A stretch of 64,000 nucleotides of DNA from Candidatus Micrarchaeota archaeon (GTDB lineage Archaea; Micrarchaeota; Micrarchaeia; Anstonellales; Bilamarchaeaceae), in contig JBBSVN010000010.1 in the NCBI GenBank assembly GCA_038046765.1, forward strand, positions 22,172 through 86,171, in the 5' to 3' direction. The position numbers and the translations under genes are program-made. The notes beneath the pieces are model-generated. The model searched no databases and was not told where the DNA came from. It saw only the letters and a program-made list of their open reading frames with translations. Shown piece by piece: positions 1,097 through 54,631 of the stretch. Each line of letters begins with the position of its first letter. The stretch's first letter is position 1.

Positions 1097-1168
1097 TATT
1101 CTACATTTATTTTCTTTTTCTTTTTTTAATATCTTTATAAAAACGTTATTTTGGTTATCTTTGCCAAC

Positions 1169-1203
1169 TATATCCTAAACAATAACGTTAAAGTTTACGA
1201 TAT
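1169..1203. repeat. 35-bp palindromic direct repeat, upstream copy flanking ATPase 1234..2532
   Basis: TATATCCTAAACAATAACGTTAAAGTTTACGATAT identical to 2558-2592; imperfect similarity extends over 1165-1220 / 2554-2609. Confidence 0.95.
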
Positions 1204-1233
1204 GATTATAAACTATTACGTTTATATCTATTT

Positions 1234-2532
1234 ATGGAGAATGCACAACTGATGGAAATCCTCTTAGATTGGAATATCTGGAGAAAAGAAATTTATACGG
1301 GTATAGAACGAACTGATCAACTAGGAAAAATCGAAAAATTAGCTTCTTCAGAGCAGGTTACTGTTATCTCTGGCCCAAGAAGAGCTGGAAAATCTACGAT
1401 CATGCTTCAATACTTAAAATCCCTGCTTTCAAAAGGCATAAAAAAAGAACAAACGTTATTTGTTAATTTTGAGGATTCACGTTTCATTAATCTTGATGTG
1501 AACACTTTAAACAAATTATATGCTATCTATAAACAAAATATAAATCCTTCATCAAAGTCCTACATTTTTCTTGATGAAGTTCAAAAAGTTCTATCCTGGG
1601 AGCGCTTTGTGCGTGGATTACATGAAAGAAAGGAAGCAAATCTTTTTGTATCTGGTTCCAACTCGCAATTGCTAAGTTCGGAATACGGGACTTCGCTAAC
1701 TGGCAGGCACTTAGACTTAGAGATTTATCCTCTTTCTTTTAAAGAGTTTTTATCTTTTAATTCTATTAGTGTAGCTGACAACCTAGATTACGTCTCAAAA
1801 AGAGACACTCTCAAAAACTTATTTAACGAGTATCTTACTTATGGTGGTTTTCCGAAAGTTGTTCTTGAAAAAGAAAATAAAAAGGAATTACTTAAGACAT
1901 ACTTCGAGGATATCCTTTTTAAGGATATAATAAATAAATACAAGGTTCGGGAAAGCGAAAAGTTAAGCACACTTGCATATTACTATCTAAGTAATATTTC
2001 TTCTGCGCATACGATTAATAGTATAAGCAAGTTCATTCCTCTTTCTAATGATACACTTGATCGTTTTTCACAATATCTTAACCAAGCTTATTTACTATTT
2101 TTTGTTCCCAAATTTTCAACTTCTTTAAAAGAGCAAGCTATAAATGCAAAAAAAGTATATGCAATTGATACTGGTTTAAAAAATATGGCAGGTTTTAAGC
2201 ATAATGAAGACTTTGGAAAATTACTTGAAAATCTTGTTTTCCTTGAACTTAAAAGGCAAAAGAAAGAAATTTATTACTGGAAAGATCGTTATGATTACGA
2301 AGTGGATTTTGTTATTAAACAAGGTCTTAAGCCAAGTAATCTGATCCAGGTTTGCTGGGATTTATCAAATGAGAAGGTTAAGCAAAGAGAAACGCGATCA
2401 TTAGAACGGGCAATGGAAGAATACAAGTTAAATGAAGGCACAATAATTACGCAAGACTACGAGGGTGAAGAAAATATTGGCGGTAAAAAAATACTATATA
2501 AATCAGCAGTTAAATGGTTTTTAGGTATTTAA
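1234..2532 (+). CDS. AAA_14/DUF4143-type ATP-binding protein with C-terminal PD-(D/E)xK-like domain
   Basis: Walker A GPRRAGKS, Walker B IFLDEVQ, VSGS, GGFP, KKVYAIDTG, LLENLV, YEVDFV...IQV. Confidence 0.9.
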   Translation: MENAQLMEILLDWNIWRKEIYTGIERTDQLGKIEKLASSEQVTVISGPRRAGKSTIMLQYLKSLLSKGIKKEQTLFVNFEDSRFINLDVNTLNKLYAIYKQNINPSSKSYIFLDEVQKVLSWERFVRGLHERKEANLFVSGSNSQLLSSEYGTSLTGRHLDLEIYPLSFKEFLSFNSISVADNLDYVSKRDTLKNLFNEYLTYGGFPKVVLEKENKKELLKTYFEDILFKDIINKYKVRESEKLSTLAYYYLSNISSAHTINSISKFIPLSNDTLDRFSQYLNQAYLLFFVPKFSTSLKEQAINAKKVYAIDTGLKNMAGFKHNEDFGKLLENLVFLELKRQKKEIYYWKDRYDYEVDFVIKQGLKPSNLIQVCWDLSNEKVKQRETRSLERAMEEYKLNEGTIITQDYEGEENIGGKKILYKSAVKWFLGI

Positions 2533-2557
2533 CACAAAAAACGCCATACCTATCAAG

Positions 2558-2592
2558 TATATCCTAAACAATAACGTTAAAGTTTACGATAT
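2558..2592. repeat. 35-bp palindromic direct repeat, downstream copy
   Basis: Exact match to 1169-1203, 25 nt after the ATPase stop codon. Confidence 0.95.
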
Positions 2593-2644
2593 ACTTAGTA
2601 ACTATAACGCTAAAAATAAAATAAACGAATAAAAAGTAATATTT

Positions 2645-2902
2645 ATGCAACTTAAAATCCGTGTCCACCCAAATTCAATAAAATTTCGAATCCTTGAGAA
2701 GGAAGATGTTCTTCACGTTTACTTAGAGAGTGAACCCGAGAAAAACAAGGCAAATCTAGAATTAATAAAAAAACTCACAAAGCTTTTTGACACAGAAGTA
2801 ACTCTGGTCTCTGGATTAAAAAGCAGAGATAAAACGGTAAATATAAATATCTTGGAAGATGAGTGGAACACTATAAAACAAAAATTACTTGAAAAAAGGT
2901 GA
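2645..2902 (+). CDS. DUF167 (YggU) family protein
   Basis: IRVHPNS...PEKNKANLELIK...LVSGLKSRDK pattern, 85 aa. Confidence 0.85.
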   Translation: MQLKIRVHPNSIKFRILEKEDVLHVYLESEPEKNKANLELIKKLTKLFDTEVTLVSGLKSRDKTVNINILEDEWNTIKQKLLEKR

Positions 2903-2906
2903 ACAT

Positions 2907-3251
2907 ATGTTTATTTTTCAGTATGCATATACATCAAAACCCGAAGATTTATCAGTCAAGAAAGCACCTAAGGAATTAGTTAAAGATATGATAAAATTGG
3001 CACAATCTTCTACGTCTATAGTTTCTATAAATAGTCTTAAGGAAAGACAAAAAGATTTGGAAAAAGCAATTAAAGACTTAAACGCATTAATGAATACAAA
3101 AAACGAATTCGGGATTAATCCAAATAAGCCTATAAATGACATCATGCTAAAAGCAATGGCCGAACTTGTCCTTGCGTCAAGCCAAAATCAGGGAATGATT
3201 CGTGAACTTGAAAGAAAGACAAACGCTAAAGCGAAATTTTCAAAAAAATAA
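2907..3251 (+). CDS. Hypothetical helical protein
   Basis: ORF with GGTGA RBS just before ATG 2907; basic C-terminus. Confidence 0.5.
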   Translation: MFIFQYAYTSKPEDLSVKKAPKELVKDMIKLAQSSTSIVSINSLKERQKDLEKAIKDLNALMNTKNEFGINPNKPINDIMLKAMAELVLASSQNQGMIRELERKTNAKAKFSKK

Positions 3252-3254
3252 AAT

Positions 3255-4958
3255 CTAGCAGGTAAATATAAAAATCAATTTATCCTTCTCTTTTTTGTCT
3301 AACCTGCAAAATCCAAATCTTTCAAACTGTATCATATCTCCAATATCTAAATTCATGCAATCTGATTCACAGTATCCTTTTACAATTTCTAAACTATTCG
3401 GAATGTAGTTTTTATTTTCATCCACTAATTCTTTTGGAACCATAATTTCGCAATCTATTTTACTTTCTTCGCTTACCCACTGGATTTTCTTCTCAACCAT
3501 CGCATCTGGCATTTGTTCAACGGTAAGTTCTTTTTCTGATGTTATTAGTTTCGCATTGGACAAATCTTTTAGTCTAAATATCTCATTTTTCTTTAAACTT
3601 TCTGCATCGCTACTACTAATGTAAAGTGTATCATTTACTTTTATTTCTCTAAATCCGTAATCGGCTGATGGGTGCAATTTGATTTTAACATCGGTTTCTT
3701 TAGCATTTTTTATTTTCATTTTAACTGGATTACTTACAAAGAAATAATGCTTTGAAGTTGGTTCAATAAGTTTCTTATTTTCAACCAATAATCGTTCCCA
3801 AGTGGGTTCGCTTTCAACTTTACTTAAACCAAAAGAAAGTACAAAGTTCTTAATTGCTTGAGGTATTATTCCTCTTCTTCTTAGTGCAACCAGTGTTGGC
3901 AATCTCGGGTCATCCCAGCCCAAAACTTTTCCTTCTTTTACTAGCGGAACTAGTAAACGTTTGCTAATTGGAGCACCTTTAATTGCGAGCCTTGAAAACC
4001 CGATCATTTTTGGTGCAATTAAATCAAGTGCAGTAAATATAGCTTGATAGAGTTCATCTCGTAGTTCATATTCTTTTGAGCGCATTGGGTGAGTCGTTCC
4101 TTCAATTAAATCCATTATGCAAACAGCTAAATCATATCCAGGCCAAACTCTGTACTTTTCTGCTTGACGATAATGTTTTGCAATAATTATTCTTGCGAGC
4201 ATTGGATCTCGCATTACGGTGTTCAGTGCGCTTAAATTTCCTCTAAATCTAAGTATTGCATCTCCTTCGTTGTATTTGCCATTAAGCATATCTTTCCAGC
4301 GTAAGAGGTTGTCTTTTGGTTTTAACCCGTGGCATGCGCAAGGTTTCATTTCTTCTCTTAATTTACTTATTGTTTCTTGCTTGCAAGTACAAACATATGC
4401 CTTTTCTTTGGAAATAAGTTTTTCTGCGTATTCATAAATTTCTTGGATATGGTCGCTAGTATAATTTTCTTCGTCCCATTTTATCCCAAGCCAGGTTATT
4501 CCCTCTTTTATCCCTTCTACGTATTCTTGCGATTCTTTTTCGGGATTGGTGTCATCAAATCTTAAAACAAGTTTTCCTTGGTAATTTCGGGTAATTTCAT
4601 TAACTAAACATAATGCTTTAGCGTGTCCTATATGGGAGTATCCGCTAGGTTCAGGGGCAAATCTAGTTACAACTTTTCCAATCTCTGCTCCTTCTACTTC
4701 GAGTTCTTTTTTCTCCTCCTTCTTTTTCTCTTCAAAGTGATAATTTTTAAGTTCCTCCTCTACTGCTTCTTTGGAAAGCTTGTTTATTTCAGAAACGATT
4801 GCGTTTATTTTCTGCATTGTCCCTTTCATGTCTGTTTTGCAATCCGGCACTTCGCCTATAACCTTGCCTACAACCGAGCCTGCGCTGGCTTTTCCAAAAT
4901 CATGTGCATTCTTTAGTGCGTGTTTACGAATAATTTGGTCTAAATTAGTAGAAGTCAT
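3255..4958 (-). CDS. gltX: Glutamyl-tRNA synthetase (archaeal type)
   Basis: RFAPEPSG..HIGH, RFDDTNP, ISKR, GWDDPRLPTL, QFERFGF. Confidence 0.97.
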   Translation of the reverse strand: MTSTNLDQIIRKHALKNAHDFGKASAGSVVGKVIGEVPDCKTDMKGTMQKINAIVSEINKLSKEAVEEELKNYHFEEKKKEEKKELEVEGAEIGKVVTRFAPEPSGYSHIGHAKALCLVNEITRNYQGKLVLRFDDTNPEKESQEYVEGIKEGITWLGIKWDEENYTSDHIQEIYEYAEKLISKEKAYVCTCKQETISKLREEMKPCACHGLKPKDNLLRWKDMLNGKYNEGDAILRFRGNLSALNTVMRDPMLARIIIAKHYRQAEKYRVWPGYDLAVCIMDLIEGTTHPMRSKEYELRDELYQAIFTALDLIAPKMIGFSRLAIKGAPISKRLLVPLVKEGKVLGWDDPRLPTLVALRRRGIIPQAIKNFVLSFGLSKVESEPTWERLLVENKKLIEPTSKHYFFVSNPVKMKIKNAKETDVKIKLHPSADYGFREIKVNDTLYISSSDAESLKKNEIFRLKDLSNAKLITSEKELTVEQMPDAMVEKKIQWVSEESKIDCEIMVPKELVDENKNYIPNSLEIVKGYCESDCMNLDIGDMIQFERFGFCRLDKKEKDKLIFIFTC

Positions 4959-50369: not shown

Positions 50370-51680
50370 ATGCTAAATGTATTAAAAACAAAACTGTCAG
50401 ATTATTTCGAGTTTGCCAAGCATAAAGCTAATTTCAAAACTGAAATTTTAGCTGGTATTTCTACATTCTTGGCACTATCCTACATTTTCATTGTAAATCC
50501 TGCAATATTAGGTGAAGCCGGTATGGCTAAGGGTTTTGTTTTCTTTGCCACAGTATTTGCCTCTTGTATTGTAACTTTAGCTATGGGGTTATACGCAAAG
50601 AAGCCCCTAGTTTTAGCTCCTGGTTTGGAGATGAATGGTTATATTGCATTTTTTGTAATTGGCGCGCTAGGTTTTAGTTGGCAGGGAGCTTTAGGTGCAG
50701 TATTCTGGGAAGGGGTTTTATGTATCCTGTTTACTTTGCACGAAATGAGAGTAAGGATAATCAAGGCAGTTCCTGCGAGTATGAAAGCTGGTTTATCATT
50801 AAGCGTCGGCGTATTTGTCGCAATAATCGGTTTAAAGGTTTCTAATATTTTACTATATCAAGGAATTGTCCTATCTGGAATAGGTGCGCTCCTTTCAAAA
50901 GAAGCCTTGGTTGTTTATTTTGGGCTAGCTGTTATTTTGATACTTGAGAGATTGAAGATAACTGGCTCGGTTTTAATCAGTATAATTCTTGCTACTTTGC
51001 TTGCTTATTACTTCGGTTTAGGGGTAAAGCCTGAAGAAGTATCATTGCTTTCTCAAGGATGGCTTGATGGCTTTTTGAAGTTTGATTTAGGAGTCATCTT
51101 AGATCCAAGAATGTGGAGTATTATTCTCACGCTTTTTGTAATTGATTTTTATGGTAGTATTGCTAAGTTCATTGGATTAACCAGGAACACTTCCATAGTA
51201 GATGAAAAGGGGGACATGCCGCAGATAAAAGAAGCTATGCTCGTTGATGGAGCGGGTACTATAATCGGCGCGGGAGCTGGAACAAGTAGCATAATCACAT
51301 ATGTAGAAAGCGCGGTCGGTATAGGTGCTGGCGGAAGAACCGGATTGACTGCAGTAGTTTGCGGCTTACTTATGTTGTCATTCCTTTTATTACCGAACCT
51401 AGTAGGATTAGTACCTGTTATATCTGCTGCTGGTGCGCTATTATTTGTCGGATTAACTCTTATGCCTTCTAGAAAAGAACTTACAACATACTCAAATGTT
51501 GAGAAAGCGTCTATTCTTGCAATGGCGCTTACAGTATTATTTACATTTGCATTAGACAAAGCTATGCTGATTGGTTTTGGAACTTATATTATTGGCTCAG
51601 TTCTAGCTGGTAAATCAAAGCAAGTTGACATCTATTTGGTTATTTCAACTGCATTAATTTTGCTTGCATTAGTGTTTTAG
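50370..51680 (+). CDS. NCS2/AzgA-like nucleobase (purine) permease
   Basis: TEILAGISTFL..YI.IVNP.IL; LAPG; TYVESAVGIGAGGRTGLTA. Confidence 0.9.
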   Translation: MLNVLKTKLSDYFEFAKHKANFKTEILAGISTFLALSYIFIVNPAILGEAGMAKGFVFFATVFASCIVTLAMGLYAKKPLVLAPGLEMNGYIAFFVIGALGFSWQGALGAVFWEGVLCILFTLHEMRVRIIKAVPASMKAGLSLSVGVFVAIIGLKVSNILLYQGIVLSGIGALLSKEALVVYFGLAVILILERLKITGSVLISIILATLLAYYFGLGVKPEEVSLLSQGWLDGFLKFDLGVILDPRMWSIILTLFVIDFYGSIAKFIGLTRNTSIVDEKGDMPQIKEAMLVDGAGTIIGAGAGTSSIITYVESAVGIGAGGRTGLTAVVCGLLMLSFLLLPNLVGLVPVISAAGALLFVGLTLMPSRKELTTYSNVEKASILAMALTVLFTFALDKAMLIGFGTYIIGSVLAGKSKQVDIYLVISTALILLALVF

Positions 51681-51718
51681 CAGGTGTAATTATTTTTCTT
51701 TCTTTTCTTATTAAAATA

Positions 51719-51795
51719 TTACATTTTAGTAAATCCATTCGTCAAGATGTATACATTATAGTAAATCAATTTGCTAAAATGTAATAAATTAGCTA
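51719..51795. repeat. 77-bp direct repeat (two tandem 32-bp palindromes), downstream copy of ATPase 51804..53009
   Basis: 71/77 identical to 53042-53118. Confidence 0.95.
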
Positions 51796-51803
51796 GTTTT
51801 TGC

Positions 51804-53009
51804 CTATTTTTTATCTTTTTCTACTAAACCAACCATAAACAGAGGTCTTTTCATTTCTTCGATTACTCCAGGATGCGTTAATATAATCTGTTTCTTTGCT
51901 TTAAAACCTTTAAACTGGCTTGCGCTTTTATTTACTCCGCCTATTTCAAAAACAGTTTCCCCAATCAAATAATCAGGTATCTTTTCTCCTCTTTCTGATT
52001 TTAAATAGTTTATTTCAAAATCAAGATTCTGTATCGCTTCAGCAAAAAAATCTTCTCTTATTGCGCCTATGCATTCATCGTAATTTTTATAAAGCAGACG
52101 ATAAGGTAATGCAAGCAGTATCTTAGGTTCCTTTAGGACATTTGTTCCTTTAGGAAAAATGCATCTTAAAACAAATGTTTTTTCAAGCACTGTAGCATAT
52201 TTCTCTACCTTATACTTTGTTGAGCCAATATTTTTTGCAACATTTGTGTAGCTAGTATCTTCAACAGATGATTTACCAAGAAATGAGATCATTTTTCTTA
52301 CTTCTACAGCTTCTTCAGAAGTTACCCTCCCGCCTAAAACTAAATCATTTCTTATAATTGTTTCTAGGATGTTGAAAAATAAAGATATTGTTTCTATTTT
52401 TCCCATCGTAAAAGGATAATTCCTTCCTTTTAAGTATAATTCAAAAAGAGGTTCTAGGTGTAAAATTTTTCCATAATATTTTTTTGCGATTTCCATATCC
52501 GCTAAATCTTCAATGTTGAACTTTGGCAAAATTTCATCTTTTTCAAAATAAATAAATTCCCTAAATGAAAACGGGTGTACCTTTATTATCCTCATTCTTC
52601 TTGAAAGGTCTGCAGATAACTCATGAAGGGAAATCGAAGAAGAACTAGTGCAAACTACGTTTATTTTTAAAAAGTCATAAATTCTTTTTAATTCAACTTC
52701 AAAGTTTGGATAGTTGTGTATTTCATCTATAAATAGTAATTTTGTATCTTTTTCTTCCAGCTCCTTTGCTAGTTCAAATAAATTAGTATCGATACCACCT
52801 GTTTCCAAAGATACATAAAAAGAAGATTCAGTTTCGTATAAAAGCTGCTTTAGTATAGTTGTTTTTCCAGCCCCCCTTGATCCGATCAATGCGATAAATG
52901 TTCTTTCTGGCAGGTATTTTTTAATGTCTTCATAAACAAATCTTTTTTTTGTATATGTTACACCTTCTGCTCGTGCTTTAGCATTTAGTTCATTTAGTAT
53001 CGGTTGCAT
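51804..53009 (-). CDS. AAA_14-type ATP-binding protein with C-terminal PD-(D/E)xK-like domain
   Basis: Walker A GSRGAGKT, Walker B LFIDEIH, ADLSRR, PFSFREF, IPDYL...FEIGG. Confidence 0.88.
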   Translation of the reverse strand: MQPILNELNAKARAEGVTYTKKRFVYEDIKKYLPERTFIALIGSRGAGKTTILKQLLYETESSFYVSLETGGIDTNLFELAKELEEKDTKLLFIDEIHNYPNFEVELKRIYDFLKINVVCTSSSSISLHELSADLSRRMRIIKVHPFSFREFIYFEKDEILPKFNIEDLADMEIAKKYYGKILHLEPLFELYLKGRNYPFTMGKIETISLFFNILETIIRNDLVLGGRVTSEEAVEVRKMISFLGKSSVEDTSYTNVAKNIGSTKYKVEKYATVLEKTFVLRCIFPKGTNVLKEPKILLALPYRLLYKNYDECIGAIREDFFAEAIQNLDFEINYLKSERGEKIPDYLIGETVFEIGGVNKSASQFKGFKAKKQIILTHPGVIEEMKRPLFMVGLVEKDKK

Positions 53010-53041
53010 AATCTATAAACAGCACAACAATATTTAAATCT

Positions 53042-53118
53042 TTACATTTTAGTAAATCCATTTTCCAAGATGCATACATTATAGTAAATTAATTTTCTAA
53101 AATGTAATAAATTAGCTA
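53042..53118. repeat. 77-bp direct repeat, upstream copy
   Basis: Matches 51719-51795; sits between the herA stop and the ATPase TATA box. Confidence 0.95.
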
Positions 53119-53119
53119 A

Positions 53120-54631
53120 TTATAAGAATGCTTCAACCTGTTTCTCCTTTTTTACCTTAGTTTCTTCAAACCTTTTAGCCATATCTCTAAGTGGTGCGCC
53201 TTTTTCTCGCTTAACTGATTTTCGTTGTCTAACTGATAAGAAAATCGGGTGATTAACTGCTTCTCCAACAACAATTGCTTCGCCCGTCTTTAATCCCGTA
53301 ATGCTCTTAGCAACCGTTGAATCAATACCCTCGCTACTCATTTGAATGTGATCTAAATCATTTGGGTTAGTTACACGTAAAATAATGTGCGTAGCGCACT
53401 GCGAAAGTGCAGTTGTACTTAAATTAACTGGACGCTGAGAGATTAAGCAAAGTGAAGCGCCAAATTTTCTTCCTTCTCGCGCGATCGTTTCAATTATACT
53501 TCTTGAAATTGCTTCGCTAGCTTCTGCTTTTTCACGTGCAAAGTTATGCGCTTCTTCAATAAGTAATAAAAATGGCGGAATCCTTTCTTTTTTCCTTAAA
53601 TTAAATAACTTTCTTCCAAGTAAAGAAACTAAAATTTGTTTTTTTCTTAAGCTATCAACGCTTGAAAAATCTAAAATTAAAAGTTTACCTGGCACAACCT
53701 GTTTTATTAGGCTTGGATTTTGTTCATCCTTAGAAATAAATCTGTATCTATGAATTTCACGAAGCGCCCTTTTCAATGTTTTTTTGACAACATCTGTTGA
53801 TATATCACTATCATCAATAGCTGCAATGAGTTCGGAAAATCCGTAGTTTACTTCATGCTCTCGCTTACACTGCTGCATTGCATATCGTAAAAGTTCTTTT
53901 TGTGGCGGGGATAAATTTGGTAACCACTCTTCAAGCATTTCTGGGGCGATTTTTGAAAGTGGAATACGCATGTCTTTTACATCAACTATTTCGGTATTGG
54001 ATCCGTACTTTTGGTCATACTTAAATCCAATGTATTCGCCGTGCATATCGATTACGATTGTTGCAATTCTACCTTCGCCTTCTTTAATTTCTAAAAGTTC
54101 TTCCATTAAAACTGATGATAAATGTGATTTACCTGCCCCAGACATTGCTAATATCGCTAAGTGCTTCTGAAGTAGCCTCGTCAAATCAATATTCGCTAGC
54201 GTATCATGATGTTGTAAGTTTCCTAAATAAAGTCCGTCCGCAGAAAATCCCAAGAAATTCTTTAGAATTTCTGATTCGCATATCTCAACTTCATTTCCAG
54301 GCGAGGGCGGAAGATAACATCTGGTAAATTTACTCTCATCTTTAGCACCAAGTACTCGAACTTCCGCTACAGAATAATCCCAGTTTGTTGTAGGAAAATC
54401 CATTTTTATACTACCCTGGTTCTCATAAGTGGAAATCGTTTCAGCCCGTTCAAAATAACGATTTGATCTATATATCTCTTTAATCATTCCAAATATTATT
54501 CCATTCTCGTTTTTTGTCTGAACGTATTGTCCTTTTTTGACATTTGATTTAGAATTAGTAATGACGAAAGCAAATTCACTAGTCGAAGGAGATTCTTCTG
54601 TTGAAACTACTGTACCTATTGCATGTGACAT
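53120..54631 (-). CDS. herA: HerA-family ATPase/helicase
   Basis: N-terminal HAS-barrel-like region, HLAILAMSGAGKS, DMHGEY, IEEAHNF, REGRKFG, SQRP. Confidence 0.88.
   Translation of the reverse strand: MSHAIGTVVSTEESPSTSEFAFVITNSKSNVKKGQYVQTKNENGIIFGMIKEIYRSNRYFERAETISTYENQGSIKMDFPTTNWDYSVAEVRVLGAKDESKFTRCYLPPSPGNEVEICESEILKNFLGFSADGLYLGNLQHHDTLANIDLTRLLQKHLAILAMSGAGKSHLSSVLMEELLEIKEGEGRIATIVIDMHGEYIGFKYDQKYGSNTEIVDVKDMRIPLSKIAPEMLEEWLPNLSPPQKELLRYAMQQCKREHEVNYGFSELIAAIDDSDISTDVVKKTLKRALREIHRYRFISKDEQNPSLIKQVVPGKLLILDFSSVDSLRKKQILVSLLGRKLFNLRKKERIPPFLLLIEEAHNFAREKAEASEAISRSIIETIAREGRKFGASLCLISQRPVNLSTTALSQCATHIILRVTNPNDLDHIQMSSEGIDSTVAKSITGLKTGEAIVVGEAVNHPIFLSVRQRKSVKREKGAPLRDMAKRFEETKVKKEKQVEAFL

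Follow-up and report, generated by a model that had tools for sequence, protein, structure and literature searches.

In mobile restriction-modification systems, expression is controlled by the C protein, a small and separate helix-turn-helix regulator, together with its C-box, in which two adjacent dyad operators lie by the core promoter; no second operator is found behind the gene. In the lac, gal and deo systems, looping repressors form loops that span 90–900 bp of control region, and the ORBs of archaeal Orc1/Cdc6 proteins frame an unwinding element, usually in inverted orientation and on one side of the gene. Terminal direct repeats are known from excisable units such as those bounded by LTRs, lox- or FRT-flanked segments and integron cassettes. 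Furthermore, restriction-modification genes have been reported to insert with a long target duplication (Furuta, Abe & Kobayashi, 2010; PMC2853133). Among the candidate defence systems of prokaryotes, PDC-S01 (AAA_14 + DUF4143) reportedly ranks fourth in frequency, and the same source describes most PDC-type candidates as still awaiting validation (PMC12988326).

Here, we describe a gene of this type from a Candidatus Micrarchaeota archaeon, which is framed on both sides by what appears to be its own operator. All coordinates refer to the window, i.e. the whole segment of 64,000 nucleotides that was analysed. The gene (51804..53009, minus strand) encodes an AAA_14 ATPase of 401 aa, which contains a winged helix and ends in a nuclease-like region resembling DUF4143, as judged from its ORF, Pfam matches and an AF2 model. 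It is enclosed by a direct repeat of 88 nt (51711-51798 and 53034-53121; 89% identical; 1323 nt from start to start), which corroborates the framing proposed in a preliminary description of this DNA; the shorter, 77-nt version of the repeat given there was re-measured as identical at 71 of 77 positions. The two adjacent, imperfect 15-2-15 dyads proposed for each copy were also borne out, with complementary arm positions of 10/15 and 13/15 in copy 1, the downstream one, and of 11/15 and 13/15 in copy 2, the upstream one. Their half-sites, with the consensus TACATTWTAGTAAAT and its complement, lie at 51720-51734, 51737-51751, 51752-51766 and 51769-51783 in the downstream (3') copy, and at 53043-53057, 53060-53074, 53075-53089 and 53092-53106 in the upstream (5') copy. 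With up to one mismatch, TACATTWTAGTAAAT is matched six times in the window, always within the repeat copies, and eight times genome-wide (6/8 within the copies), and the 88-nt repeat as a whole matches no third place in the 1.5-Mb genome. A lone exact half-site (G000:C16:18263) is located in a 27-nt gap within an operon and is taken as a chance occurrence.

The upstream copy (53034..53121, minus strand), with its two tandem imperfect dyads, terminates 21 nt short of the ATG. It reaches outwards to the stop codon of herA (53120) and inwards into a TATA-like box (TTTAAATA; 53031..53038, minus strand), which is found 22-29 nt before the ATG; given standard archaeal promoter geometry, this spacing implies a leaderless or near-leaderless mRNA. 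The downstream copy (51711..51798, minus strand) starts 5 nt past the stop codon and lies in the gap to the converging NCS2 permease gene, which ends at 51680. Operator, promoter, gene and second operator make up a cassette of 1411 bp between the ends of herA and the permease gene. Rfam yielded no match at E up to 1 in the region 51000-53800.

The AAA_14 domain of the encoded protein (PF13173; residues 37-152) scores 90.9 bits (E 8.4e-26), above the curated cut-off of 27 bits, and the Walker motif residues G43, G46, G48, K49 and T50 as well as D95 and E96 are invariant or nearly so in 19 homologues. DUF4143 (PF13635) matches residues 232-294 with 23.7 bits, below its curated cut-off of 28.1; this partial match covers profile positions 11-73 of 160, i.e. 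the winged-helix part. An hhalign comparison with ten canonical DUF4143 proteins aligned residues 34-379 over 323 columns at 99.9% probability, including the C-terminal nuclease-like part, and indicates that this region is homologous to canonical PD-(D/E)xK-like DUF4143 members. Within the predicted nuclease-like C-terminus, E319, D346, E355 and K361 are invariant in the 19 homologues. The AF2 model (pLDDT 89.6) shows the winged helix, consisting of three helices and two strands, at residues 231-299, and in fold comparisons it best matched DNA-bound Orc1/Cdc6 (top match 2qby), followed by DnaA, CED-4 and RuvB, with TM-scores of 0.25-0.43. A sequence search of solved structures with the 401-aa protein returned no relevant match, and no NCBIfam profile scored above its cut-off. 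PADLOC reports the protein as the candidate single-gene defence system PDC-S01 through a partial match (PDLC04787, E 2.5e-24, residues 21-281); the other AAA_14 paralogue in the window matches PDC-S01 with an E of 8.6e-125. The neighbours of the 401-aa gene (eight ORFs scanned) are herA, the NCS2 permease gene, EndA, DUF1761, DUF2070 and a methyltransferase.

This arrangement resembles each of the systems outlined above in part. As in C-box control, two adjacent dyads are found by the core promoter of a nuclease unit that is potentially toxic and passes from host to host, and the control travels with the gene, but here it is the ATPase/nuclease-like protein that bears the winged helix, and a second operator copy follows at the 3' end. 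With the lac, gal and deo repressors, it has in common two operator sets, a single (here predicted) oligomeric regulator and the enclosure of promoter-proximal DNA; by contrast, the arrays are equal, would enclose an entire 1.3-kb gene, and occur in copies that differ little over their 46-91 nt. An AAA+ plus winged-helix fold and paralogue-specific dyad repeats beside the protein's own gene are reminiscent of Orc1/Cdc6 and its ORBs, whereas here direct copies frame the gene, and nothing in our data speaks for a replication role. Dyad-built direct repeats that bound a small unit moving in one piece recall LTRs, lox/FRT segments and integron cassettes, but none of the eight neighbouring ORFs encodes a recombinase or reverse transcriptase, and no excision product is present in the contigs of four runs. 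The restriction-modification insertions likewise involve a nuclease-type gene, no integrase or transposase, and unique direct repeats of more than 30 bp that are read as a sign of mobility; as described there, however, the repeat is a pre-existing target that occurs once at the empty site (PMC2853133), and not the operator of the gene. An operator-gene-operator architecture is described nowhere in the article texts searched on DUF4143/COG1373/PDC-S01, DPANN and HATPase_c_4+AlbA_2.

The architecture is not restricted to this locus. When the upstream and downstream flanks of 1174 ORFs of at least 150 aa were compared by local score in an unbiased scan, the locus came out on top (score 69; median 12, 95th percentile 16), and 12 ORFs reached a score of at least 34: eight AAA_14 genes, three SLFN_AlbA_2+HATPase_c_4 genes and a 606-aa ORF without Pfam match. 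An enrichment of flanking repeats around family members, which had been put forward earlier as a check, is strong, with 11 of the 12 best results falling into two families. In the genome, 8 of 11 AAA_14/DUF4143 genes and 3 of 5 Schlafen-AlbA_2/HATPase_c_4/wHTH genes have the cassette form; both families join an NTPase, a nuclease-like domain and a wHTH, the latter located at the end or internally. The repeats of the 12 cassettes are 46-91 nt long, 82-95% identical and built of dyads, and their sequence differs gene by gene. Their upstream copies end 8-35 nt before the ATG, at a TATA-like box, and their downstream copies start about -32 to +32 nt from the stop codon; the cassettes hold no spare DNA and are of minimal unit size. 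Solo copies were found genome-wide for none of the 12 repeats. Each exists in exactly two copies, so that each protein has its only full site arrays at its own gene. A second cassette in the window (1165..2609, plus strand; repeat at 1165-1220 and 2554-2609, 56 nt, 89% identical), for instance, frames a 432-aa canonical AAA_14 + DUF4143 gene (1234-2532) with a repeat sequence unlike that of the cassette at 51-53 kb. The paralogues in this genome (G000) are at most 47% identical. Downstream neighbours are convergent in six and co-directional in six of the 12 cassettes, and without such an orientation pattern no single insulation scenario fits them all.

The idea that the repeat arose by misassembly or by chance has next to no credibility. 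The genome, a draft of 20 contigs, does come from metagenome assembly, but in two further studies both repeat/gene junctions are found on short contigs that show 0 differences (segments 51716-51866 and 52895-53194, and 51742-51913 and 53079-53229, respectively); a 14,795-nt contig from the probable source run, which is not independent, covers the whole stretch in question, also with 0 differences. The locus score of 69 against a genome median of 12 and the recurrence of the architecture at 11 further loci and in other genomes also argue against this idea, which we regard as refuted as far as contigs can show.

In relatives, the element is found with the gene even where the second copy is missing. 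Seven of ten homologues have no downstream copy, yet their upstream regions match the 88-nt operator with scores of 22-39; L006 scores 20, and the remaining two score 10-13.5, compared to 7-14 for the downstream regions of all ten. The same two-dyad element lies upstream of L077 and of orthologues in other genera, the latter without a downstream copy. Because it precedes orthologues that lack a second copy, the repeat is, on comparative grounds, the ATPase gene's own conserved operator, with dyads at the core promoter that are kept with the gene. The downstream copy is optional, a point absent from the preliminary description: most close orthologues carry the operator upstream only, and it is missing from 28 of the 30 paralogues of genome G034, which argues that it is not needed for basic function. 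The cassette form is found in 11 of 18 homologues from genomes of the same family or order, and in 2 of 7 homologues of the second family (Schlafen-AlbA_2/HATPase_c_4/wHTH). The final homologue census employed a wider window and inspection by eye, since first-in-frame start assignment can hide an upstream copy, as in the case of L029; other cassette-negative homologues may be affected. Two candidates, L023 and L183, were rejected as cassettes, their match being the C-terminal coding sequence of a tandem paralogue. For a tandem pair in G005, we also rejected the idea that gene B is transcribed from the downstream copy of gene A; gene B has dyads of its own, which are different, and its own TATA box.

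Where both copies are present, they evolve in concert. Across genera, cassettes that are orthologous at 60-77% protein identity all retain both copies, and the differences between these cassettes, spacers included, are common to both copies of each locus. Divergence between copies is continuous, from 0 to 22%, and even over dyad and non-dyad positions; mismatches affect 104 of 1068 positions in recurring 6-mers, i.e. the dyads (9.7%), and 49 of 435 others (11.3%; p = 0.40), a comparison that is uninformative on dyad selection because most positions of the AT-rich repeats count as motif. The lack of a mismatch deficit in the dyads and the co-varying spacers fit homogenisation or re-duplication better than binding-site selection alone. 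A tree of 91 proteins shows at least 13 changes of repeat state.

The cassette also spreads as one piece. L020 (G016) and L029 (G018), from different taxonomic families, have an operator-gene-operator block in common with 74% DNA identity, which extends from the left edge of the 5' operator to the end of the 3' operator or ~35 nt beyond, and their outer flanks have no tblastx match in common. Their proteins are 77% identical, as opposed to 32% for DUF2070, a marker protein present in both genomes. Sequence comparison thus demonstrates that the cassette is inherited and horizontally exchanged as a whole unit. The nearest homologues of the 401-aa ATPase gene are found in unrelated genomic contexts. 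The one-gene cassette of the preliminary description gains support as a unit of transfer, but its excision, possibly as a circle, found no support: there are no solo copies and no short target duplications, and no contig of four runs contains a joint that skips the 1323 nt, which says little, as contigs drop rare variants.

Other traces of mobility were sought in the surroundings of the cassettes. The herA-NCS2 neighbourhood is kept in none of 15 relatives, all from other genera, whose HerA loci lack both the ATPase and NCS2 over a distance of 1.5 kb; an empty site is therefore not definable. At L189 (G034), the two congeners share the flanking genes, with two distinct genes of housekeeping type in between, but this region is rearranged and was rejected as a clean empty-site indel. 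A scan of metagenome contigs retrieved four related loci (34-57% identity), none of them at strain level and none with a downstream copy; a scan of viral contigs for the locus gave no match, and none of the RNA runs holds it. Across 23 cassettes, the longest word shared outside the repeats averages 4.5 nt, compared to 4.7 in mismatched pairs, and reaches 7 nt or more in only one. This, and the absence of a transposase among the eight neighbouring ORFs, led us to reject a transposon or insertion sequence; tyrosine or serine recombinases, reverse transcriptases and integron platforms were likewise not found among these ORFs. An integrase-mediated island with attL/attR sites was rejected as well, given a unit of a single gene, no integrase and no tRNA in the 64-kb window. 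Finally, an insertion with long target duplication is disfavoured, since orthologues in other genomes and contexts have the repeat conserved on their upstream side, and it is thus not a target unrelated to the inserted gene. This agrees with the earlier proposal that the repeat is too long and structured for a target-site duplication and is tied to the encoded protein.

The best reading of these data, which we hold with a little less confidence than would justify calling it probable, is that of a portable, autoregulated operator-gene-operator cassette whose product binds both ends. The 88-nt repeat would be an operator array of two tandem dyads with the half-site TACATTWTAGTAAAT, placed directly against the TATA box, and its likely ligand would be the protein's own winged helix; a second array, which in this genome and its order follows immediately after the stop codon, makes the gene a compact cassette. 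Dimers or oligomers of the AAA+/winged-helix/nuclease-like protein would most likely occupy both arrays, whereby occupancy of the 5' array would tune the gene's own promoter and that of the 3' array would bridge or block its other end. In this way, the product would set its gene's expression wherever the cassette lands, making it self-insulated, portable and autoregulated. Protein binding, repression, looping and insulation are what we infer here, and looping or binding of the repeats by the encoded protein is plausible. This reading does not explain by what mechanism operators were copied precisely, time and again, to the stop codons of many genes. It is somewhat unlikely that the copies are instead the ends of a one-gene mobile element, whose ATPase-nuclease would use the dyad arrays as recognition sites for cutting or recombination. 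The 1323-bp unit would then leave either in circular form or, after cuts at both edges of the operator, in linear form with long cohesive ends, and its re-insertion would rebuild the operator on both sides, as a donor-site rather than target-site duplication. This would be in line with the L020/L029 homology, which stops about the outer repeat edges between unrelated flanks, and with their 77% protein identity against 32% for the marker, with the unrelated contexts of the nearest homologues and the lack of spare DNA, with the at least 13 changes of repeat state, with the NTPase, nuclease-like and wHTH domains in both families and the retained E319, D346, E355 and K361, and with copies that stay 82-100% alike, spacers included, whatever the age of the cassette, as if reset with each move. 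However, near-identical copy pairs are found in no genome examined (paralogues in G000 are at most 47% identical), the repeats at the locus are already 11% diverged, and most family members lack the second copy; nor is there a solo repeat in the genome, a gene-skipping joint in the contigs of four runs, a short target duplication outside the repeats of 23 cassettes, or a viral contig match. An operator doubling as a recombination site would also be unprecedented for these domains. The more specific notion of a new autonomous one-gene element, in which the NTPase-nuclease-wHTH protein uses its own operator as a cut-and-join site, appears plainly unlikely. Staggered cuts at the edges of the dyad arrays, or resolved dyad cruciforms, would free the 1.3-kb unit with long cohesive ends, and insertion would then restore the operator on both sides.

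Two further explanations were considered. The downstream copy might be a functionless by-product of gene insertion or duplication, for example from a tandem or rolling-circle intermediate of slightly over unit length or from a long duplication at insertion, with gene conversion keeping the copies similar. We deem this quite improbable: the duplicated segment is always the operator, with the TATA box and the stop codon as its limits, and this in two unrelated families with over 20 independent cassettes between them, and a neutral relic would be expected to vanish by decay or by pop-out between direct repeats, whereas orthologous cassettes across genera all keep it. That the copy is optional, and that its divergence is continuous and alike at dyad and non-dyad positions, would be accounted for, and long direct repeats have been reported around restriction-modification nuclease genes without mobility genes (PMC2853133). 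Very improbable, in turn, is an integrated mini-replicon, with an Orc1/Cdc6-like initiator and dyad arrays as iteron- or ORB-like, also autoregulatory origin elements. The best structural matches, origin-DNA-bound Orc1/Cdc6 and DnaA, would suit such a role, as would paralogue-specific sites adjoining the gene and the minimal size of the unit, but the TM-scores are low (0.25-0.43), CED-4 and RuvB match too, and the second family has no AAA+ initiator fold. Moreover, the sites frame the gene in direct orientation and not an AT-rich unwinding element; circular or small contigs did not turn up, and L077 has no terminal overlap.

For dozens of individual proteins, the cassettes provide predicted cognate DNA sites of 46-91 nt, so that binding, cleavage, looping and specificity swaps are directly testable. 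If the copies are indeed the ends of a mobile element, this would be a new minimal one; and if the protein cuts and joins at its own operator, selfish mobility, instead of or besides defence, would explain the patchiness and large paralogue numbers of PDC-S01 and Schlafen-AlbA_2 genes. Under the favoured reading of a portable, autoregulated cassette, the operator-gene-operator form would represent a distinct packaging of a potentially toxic gene for changing genomic contexts, and that genes of an unrelated, Schlafen-type family are packaged in this way, too, suggests a general principle and not a peculiarity of one family.

The 401-aa ATPase gene between the herA and NCS2 permease genes (51804-53009, minus strand) is enclosed by an 88-nt direct repeat, the two copies of which (51711-51798 and 53034-53121) are 89% identical and lie 1323 nt apart from start to start. 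In the orientation of the gene, the upstream copy extends from the herA stop codon (53120) at its outer edge to a TTTAAATA box at its inner edge, 22-29 nt 5' of the ATG, and the downstream copy starts 5 nt past the stop codon and ends about 30 nt short of the end of the convergent permease gene. The insert between the ends of the two neighbours measures 1411 bp and contains no spare DNA. As reported in the preliminary description, the 77-nt core of the repeat is identical at 71/77 positions, and each copy holds two adjacent, imperfect 15-2-15 palindromes. These are built from the half-site TACATTWTAGTAAAT, and their arms are complementary at 10-13 of 15 positions. We consider the chance of an artefact negligible: the probable source run has a contig that covers the whole stretch with 0 differences, and both repeat/gene junctions recur, again with 0 differences, in short contigs of two other studies. 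The 88-nt repeat occupies only these two sites in the draft genome (1,515,479 nt); the locus (51000-53800) has no Rfam match, and no tRNA was found within the 64-kb window. One isolated exact 15-nt half-site, for which we estimate a chance expectation of roughly 0.1, is found elsewhere in the genome, in a gap of 27 nt that separates two co-directional genes (G000:C16:18263-18277).

The encoded protein matches Pfam AAA_14 (E 8.4e-26), with a sub-threshold DUF4143 match limited to residues 232-294. An alignment of 19 homologues shows that Walker A, Walker B, E319, D346, E355 and K361 are kept, and when profiles are compared, the match to 10 canonical AAA_14+DUF4143 proteins (99.9% probability, 323 columns) extends into the C-terminal nuclease-like part. 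In a confident AF2 model (pLDDT 89.6), the AAA+ core is accompanied by a winged helix (about residues 231-299) and, at the C-terminus, an α/β domain; the model's best fold matches, all with low TM-scores, are DNA-bound Orc1/Cdc6, DnaA, CED-4 and RuvB. PADLOC places the family in PDC-S01, a candidate for a defence system of one gene. According to PMC12988326, PDC-S01 ranks fourth in frequency among prokaryotic defence candidates, most of which still await validation.

Of the ten homologues compared, seven (loci L013, L014, L015, L081, L082, L083 and L087) lack a downstream copy but still carry two dyads of the form ..CATTTTAG-N-CTAAAATG.. directly 5' of a TATA-like box. Their similarity scores to the upstream copy of the window locus are 22-39, compared with 20 for L006 and 10-13.5 for L085 and L086; the same copy scores 7-14 against the downstream regions of all 10. 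L077 likewise has an upstream dyad element and no downstream copy. Because homologues without a downstream copy keep the dyads upstream of the TATA-like box, the 88-nt repeat is, to judge from these comparisons, a conserved cis-element that belongs to the gene and lies at its promoter, i.e. its putative operator, and the downstream copy is a variable addition. The duplication of an arbitrary target, already dismissed in the preliminary description, is therefore excluded. A different repeat with GGCGGTTCTGAGG, perhaps an outer one, perhaps a generic element of intergenic DNA, is found in two MAGs labelled Micrarchaeota, after the gene and about 290 nt upstream in L086 (2090-2162 and 3674-3745) and just past the stop codon in L082. 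In a tandem pair of AAA_14 paralogues from genome G005 (L190, G005:C3:153500-160500, at 2018-4643), only the first gene has both copies, the downstream one beginning within its stop codon. We rejected this copy as a promoter of the second gene, since other dyads and a TATA box, belonging to that gene, come after it.

A compact operator-promoter-gene-operator cassette of this form recurs within the genome. For the 1174 ORFs with complete flanks and a length of 150 aa or more, we aligned 250 nt outside and 30 nt inside each end, flank against flank (median score 12, 95th percentile 16, 99th percentile 33). The top 12 ORFs, scoring 34-69, comprise eight AAA_14 genes, three SLFN_AlbA_2+HATPase_c_4 genes and one 606-aa ORF. 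The proposed enrichment of flanking repeats around family members was thus borne out, with 8 of the 11 AAA_14 genes among these 12, as are 3 of the 5 SLFN_AlbA_2+HATPase_c_4 genes, which encode a C-terminal wHTH-like tail. The 13th ORF (score 33, G000:C15:26432-27494) was discarded: its match stems from the ribosome-binding site and start region that two tandem paralogues have in common, not from an operator cassette.

The repeats of the 12 cassettes span 46-91 nt, with copies 82-95% identical, and each cassette has its own sequence, of which no third copy exists in the genome. AAA_14 repeats mostly contain two dyads, and those of the second family (G000:C7:29648-31069, G000:C4:139187-140648 and G000:C4:184243-185701) four half-sites, two right ones followed by two left ones. 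In each of the 12 cassettes, the upstream copy stops at a TATA-like box, usually leaving the box outside, 8-44 nt before the assigned start; the downstream copy starts at about -8 to +32 nt relative to the stop. The 606-aa ORF (G000:C4:147991-149999), apparently rich in coiled coils and without Pfam or PADLOC match, has a 61-63-nt repeat at the same positions and may represent a third family with this packaging. The cassette is specific to NTPase/nuclease-like/wHTH proteins of two, perhaps three, families. The window holds a second example (1165-2609), in which the gene at 1234-2532, a canonical AAA_14+DUF4143 member, sits between the copies of a 56-nt repeat that are 89% identical. About 36 nt separate the downstream copy from the ATG of a co-directional neighbour, so that this copy might also act on that gene.

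In other genomes, where we used a wider search window and visual checks, the form is found in 11 of 18 homologues from the same family or order and in 2 of 7 second-family genes of relatives (L202, L204); L023 and L183 were rejected, their matches being coding sequence of tandem paralogues. Among the best AAA_14 genes of 26 other genomes of the phylum, one from each, it occurs in 2/26, not counting two non-abutting repeats and leaving out the negative result from unpublished G046. In genome G034, of about 1 Mb, AAA_14 is matched 47 times, in several cases by genes in tandem, and 2 of the 30 genes examined have the form. In the species-representative collection, none of the six nearest archaeal homologues (labelled Micrarchaeota, Iainarchaeum or 'archaeon') and none of the 68 testable archaeal and bacterial loci shows abutting copies; flank repeats scoring at least 24 occur at 7/68, 100-200 nt from at least one ORF end, and some look like generic intergenic repeats. 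Some bacterial homologues of about 40% identity (L098, L106, L108, L138, L153) have direct repeats of 49-106 nt, some of them hairpin-like and perhaps elements of the REP or MITE type. In a 91-protein tree, the form is present in 18/33 of the query-like clade (about 400 aa) versus 5/58 of the canonical clade; it changes state 13 times or more, where shuffling gives a mean of 20 and 0/500 shuffles come out as low. This count precedes recognition of the L029 upstream copy.

The operator is conserved along with the gene. Orthologous cassettes of different genera keep both copies (G000 C12/L016/L022, L024/L189 and L020/L029); L024 and L189 encode proteins 60% identical and have repeats about 90% identical. 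Differences between orthologues, spacers included, are common to both copies within each locus: the two copies evolve in concert. L020 and L029, from different taxonomic families (G016 and G018), share a block of 74% DNA identity. It begins at the upstream operator's left edge and closes with the downstream operator or about 35 nt past it; outside, there is no similarity and no tblastx match. Their proteins are 77% identical, compared with 32% for the DUF2070 membrane protein of the same genomes, the one marker used. The nearest homologues of the window's gene do not adjoin herA or NCS2. Because of this block-wise likeness and these other contexts, the whole block, exchanged between lineages, behaves as the unit of horizontal transfer.

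We infer that the encoded protein binds the dyads, and tentatively favour a portable, self-regulated unit with its product occupying both ends, in which the 5' array would mediate autoregulation at the TATA box and the 3' array would be a bridge, a roadblock or an insulator. Less probable, at somewhat under one chance in three, is a mobile element of one gene with the copies as its working ends: its nuclease would act there, and its insertion would rebuild the operator at both ends. The even likeness of the copies, spacers included, the lack of spare DNA and the transfer as a whole block speak for such an element; against it, no recent copy, solo site or excision product was found. The mobile or excisable cassette of the preliminary description gains support as regards block-wise transfer between lineages, but so far none as regards excision, of which the contigs contain no product. 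No contig skips the window's gene, no solo repeat occurs in the genome for the 12 cassettes, and the sequence just outside the repeats shows no short target duplication. The eight neighbouring ORFs scanned include neither an integrase nor a transposase, and we found no relative on a viral contig, no strain-level relative defining an empty site and no preference in neighbour-gene orientation. In a weak test, copy-to-copy mismatches were no rarer in dyad positions than elsewhere. One variable spot is the PvlArgDC-MarC region (L210, L215, L216), which holds an AAA_14 cassette in G034; in its two congeners, a 204-223-aa gene of no known function and a DHH/DHHA1 (RecJ-like) gene follow PvlArgDC, and only one of the two, G002, has the MarC flank.

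That the downstream copy is a functionless by-product, its likeness kept by gene conversion, strikes us as rather improbable. An integrated mini-replicon is very unlikely.

C-box control of restriction genes, Orc1/Cdc6-ORB pairs, looping repressors and LTR- or lox-like ends may each be seen as having one aspect in common with these cassettes. The nearest described phenomenon is the 'insertion with long target duplication' seen with restriction-modification genes (PMC2853133), in which the repeat is the target; a defining feature is absent here, because the repeat is instead the gene's own putative operator. Within the main-text portions available of the literature on DUF4143, COG1373/arCOG03167/PF13173, PDC-S01, flanking direct repeats in DPANN, and HATPase_c_4+AlbA_2, such cassettes are not described. 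Their practical value is high, since for many proteins of an abundant but uncharacterised family they predict the cognate DNA site.
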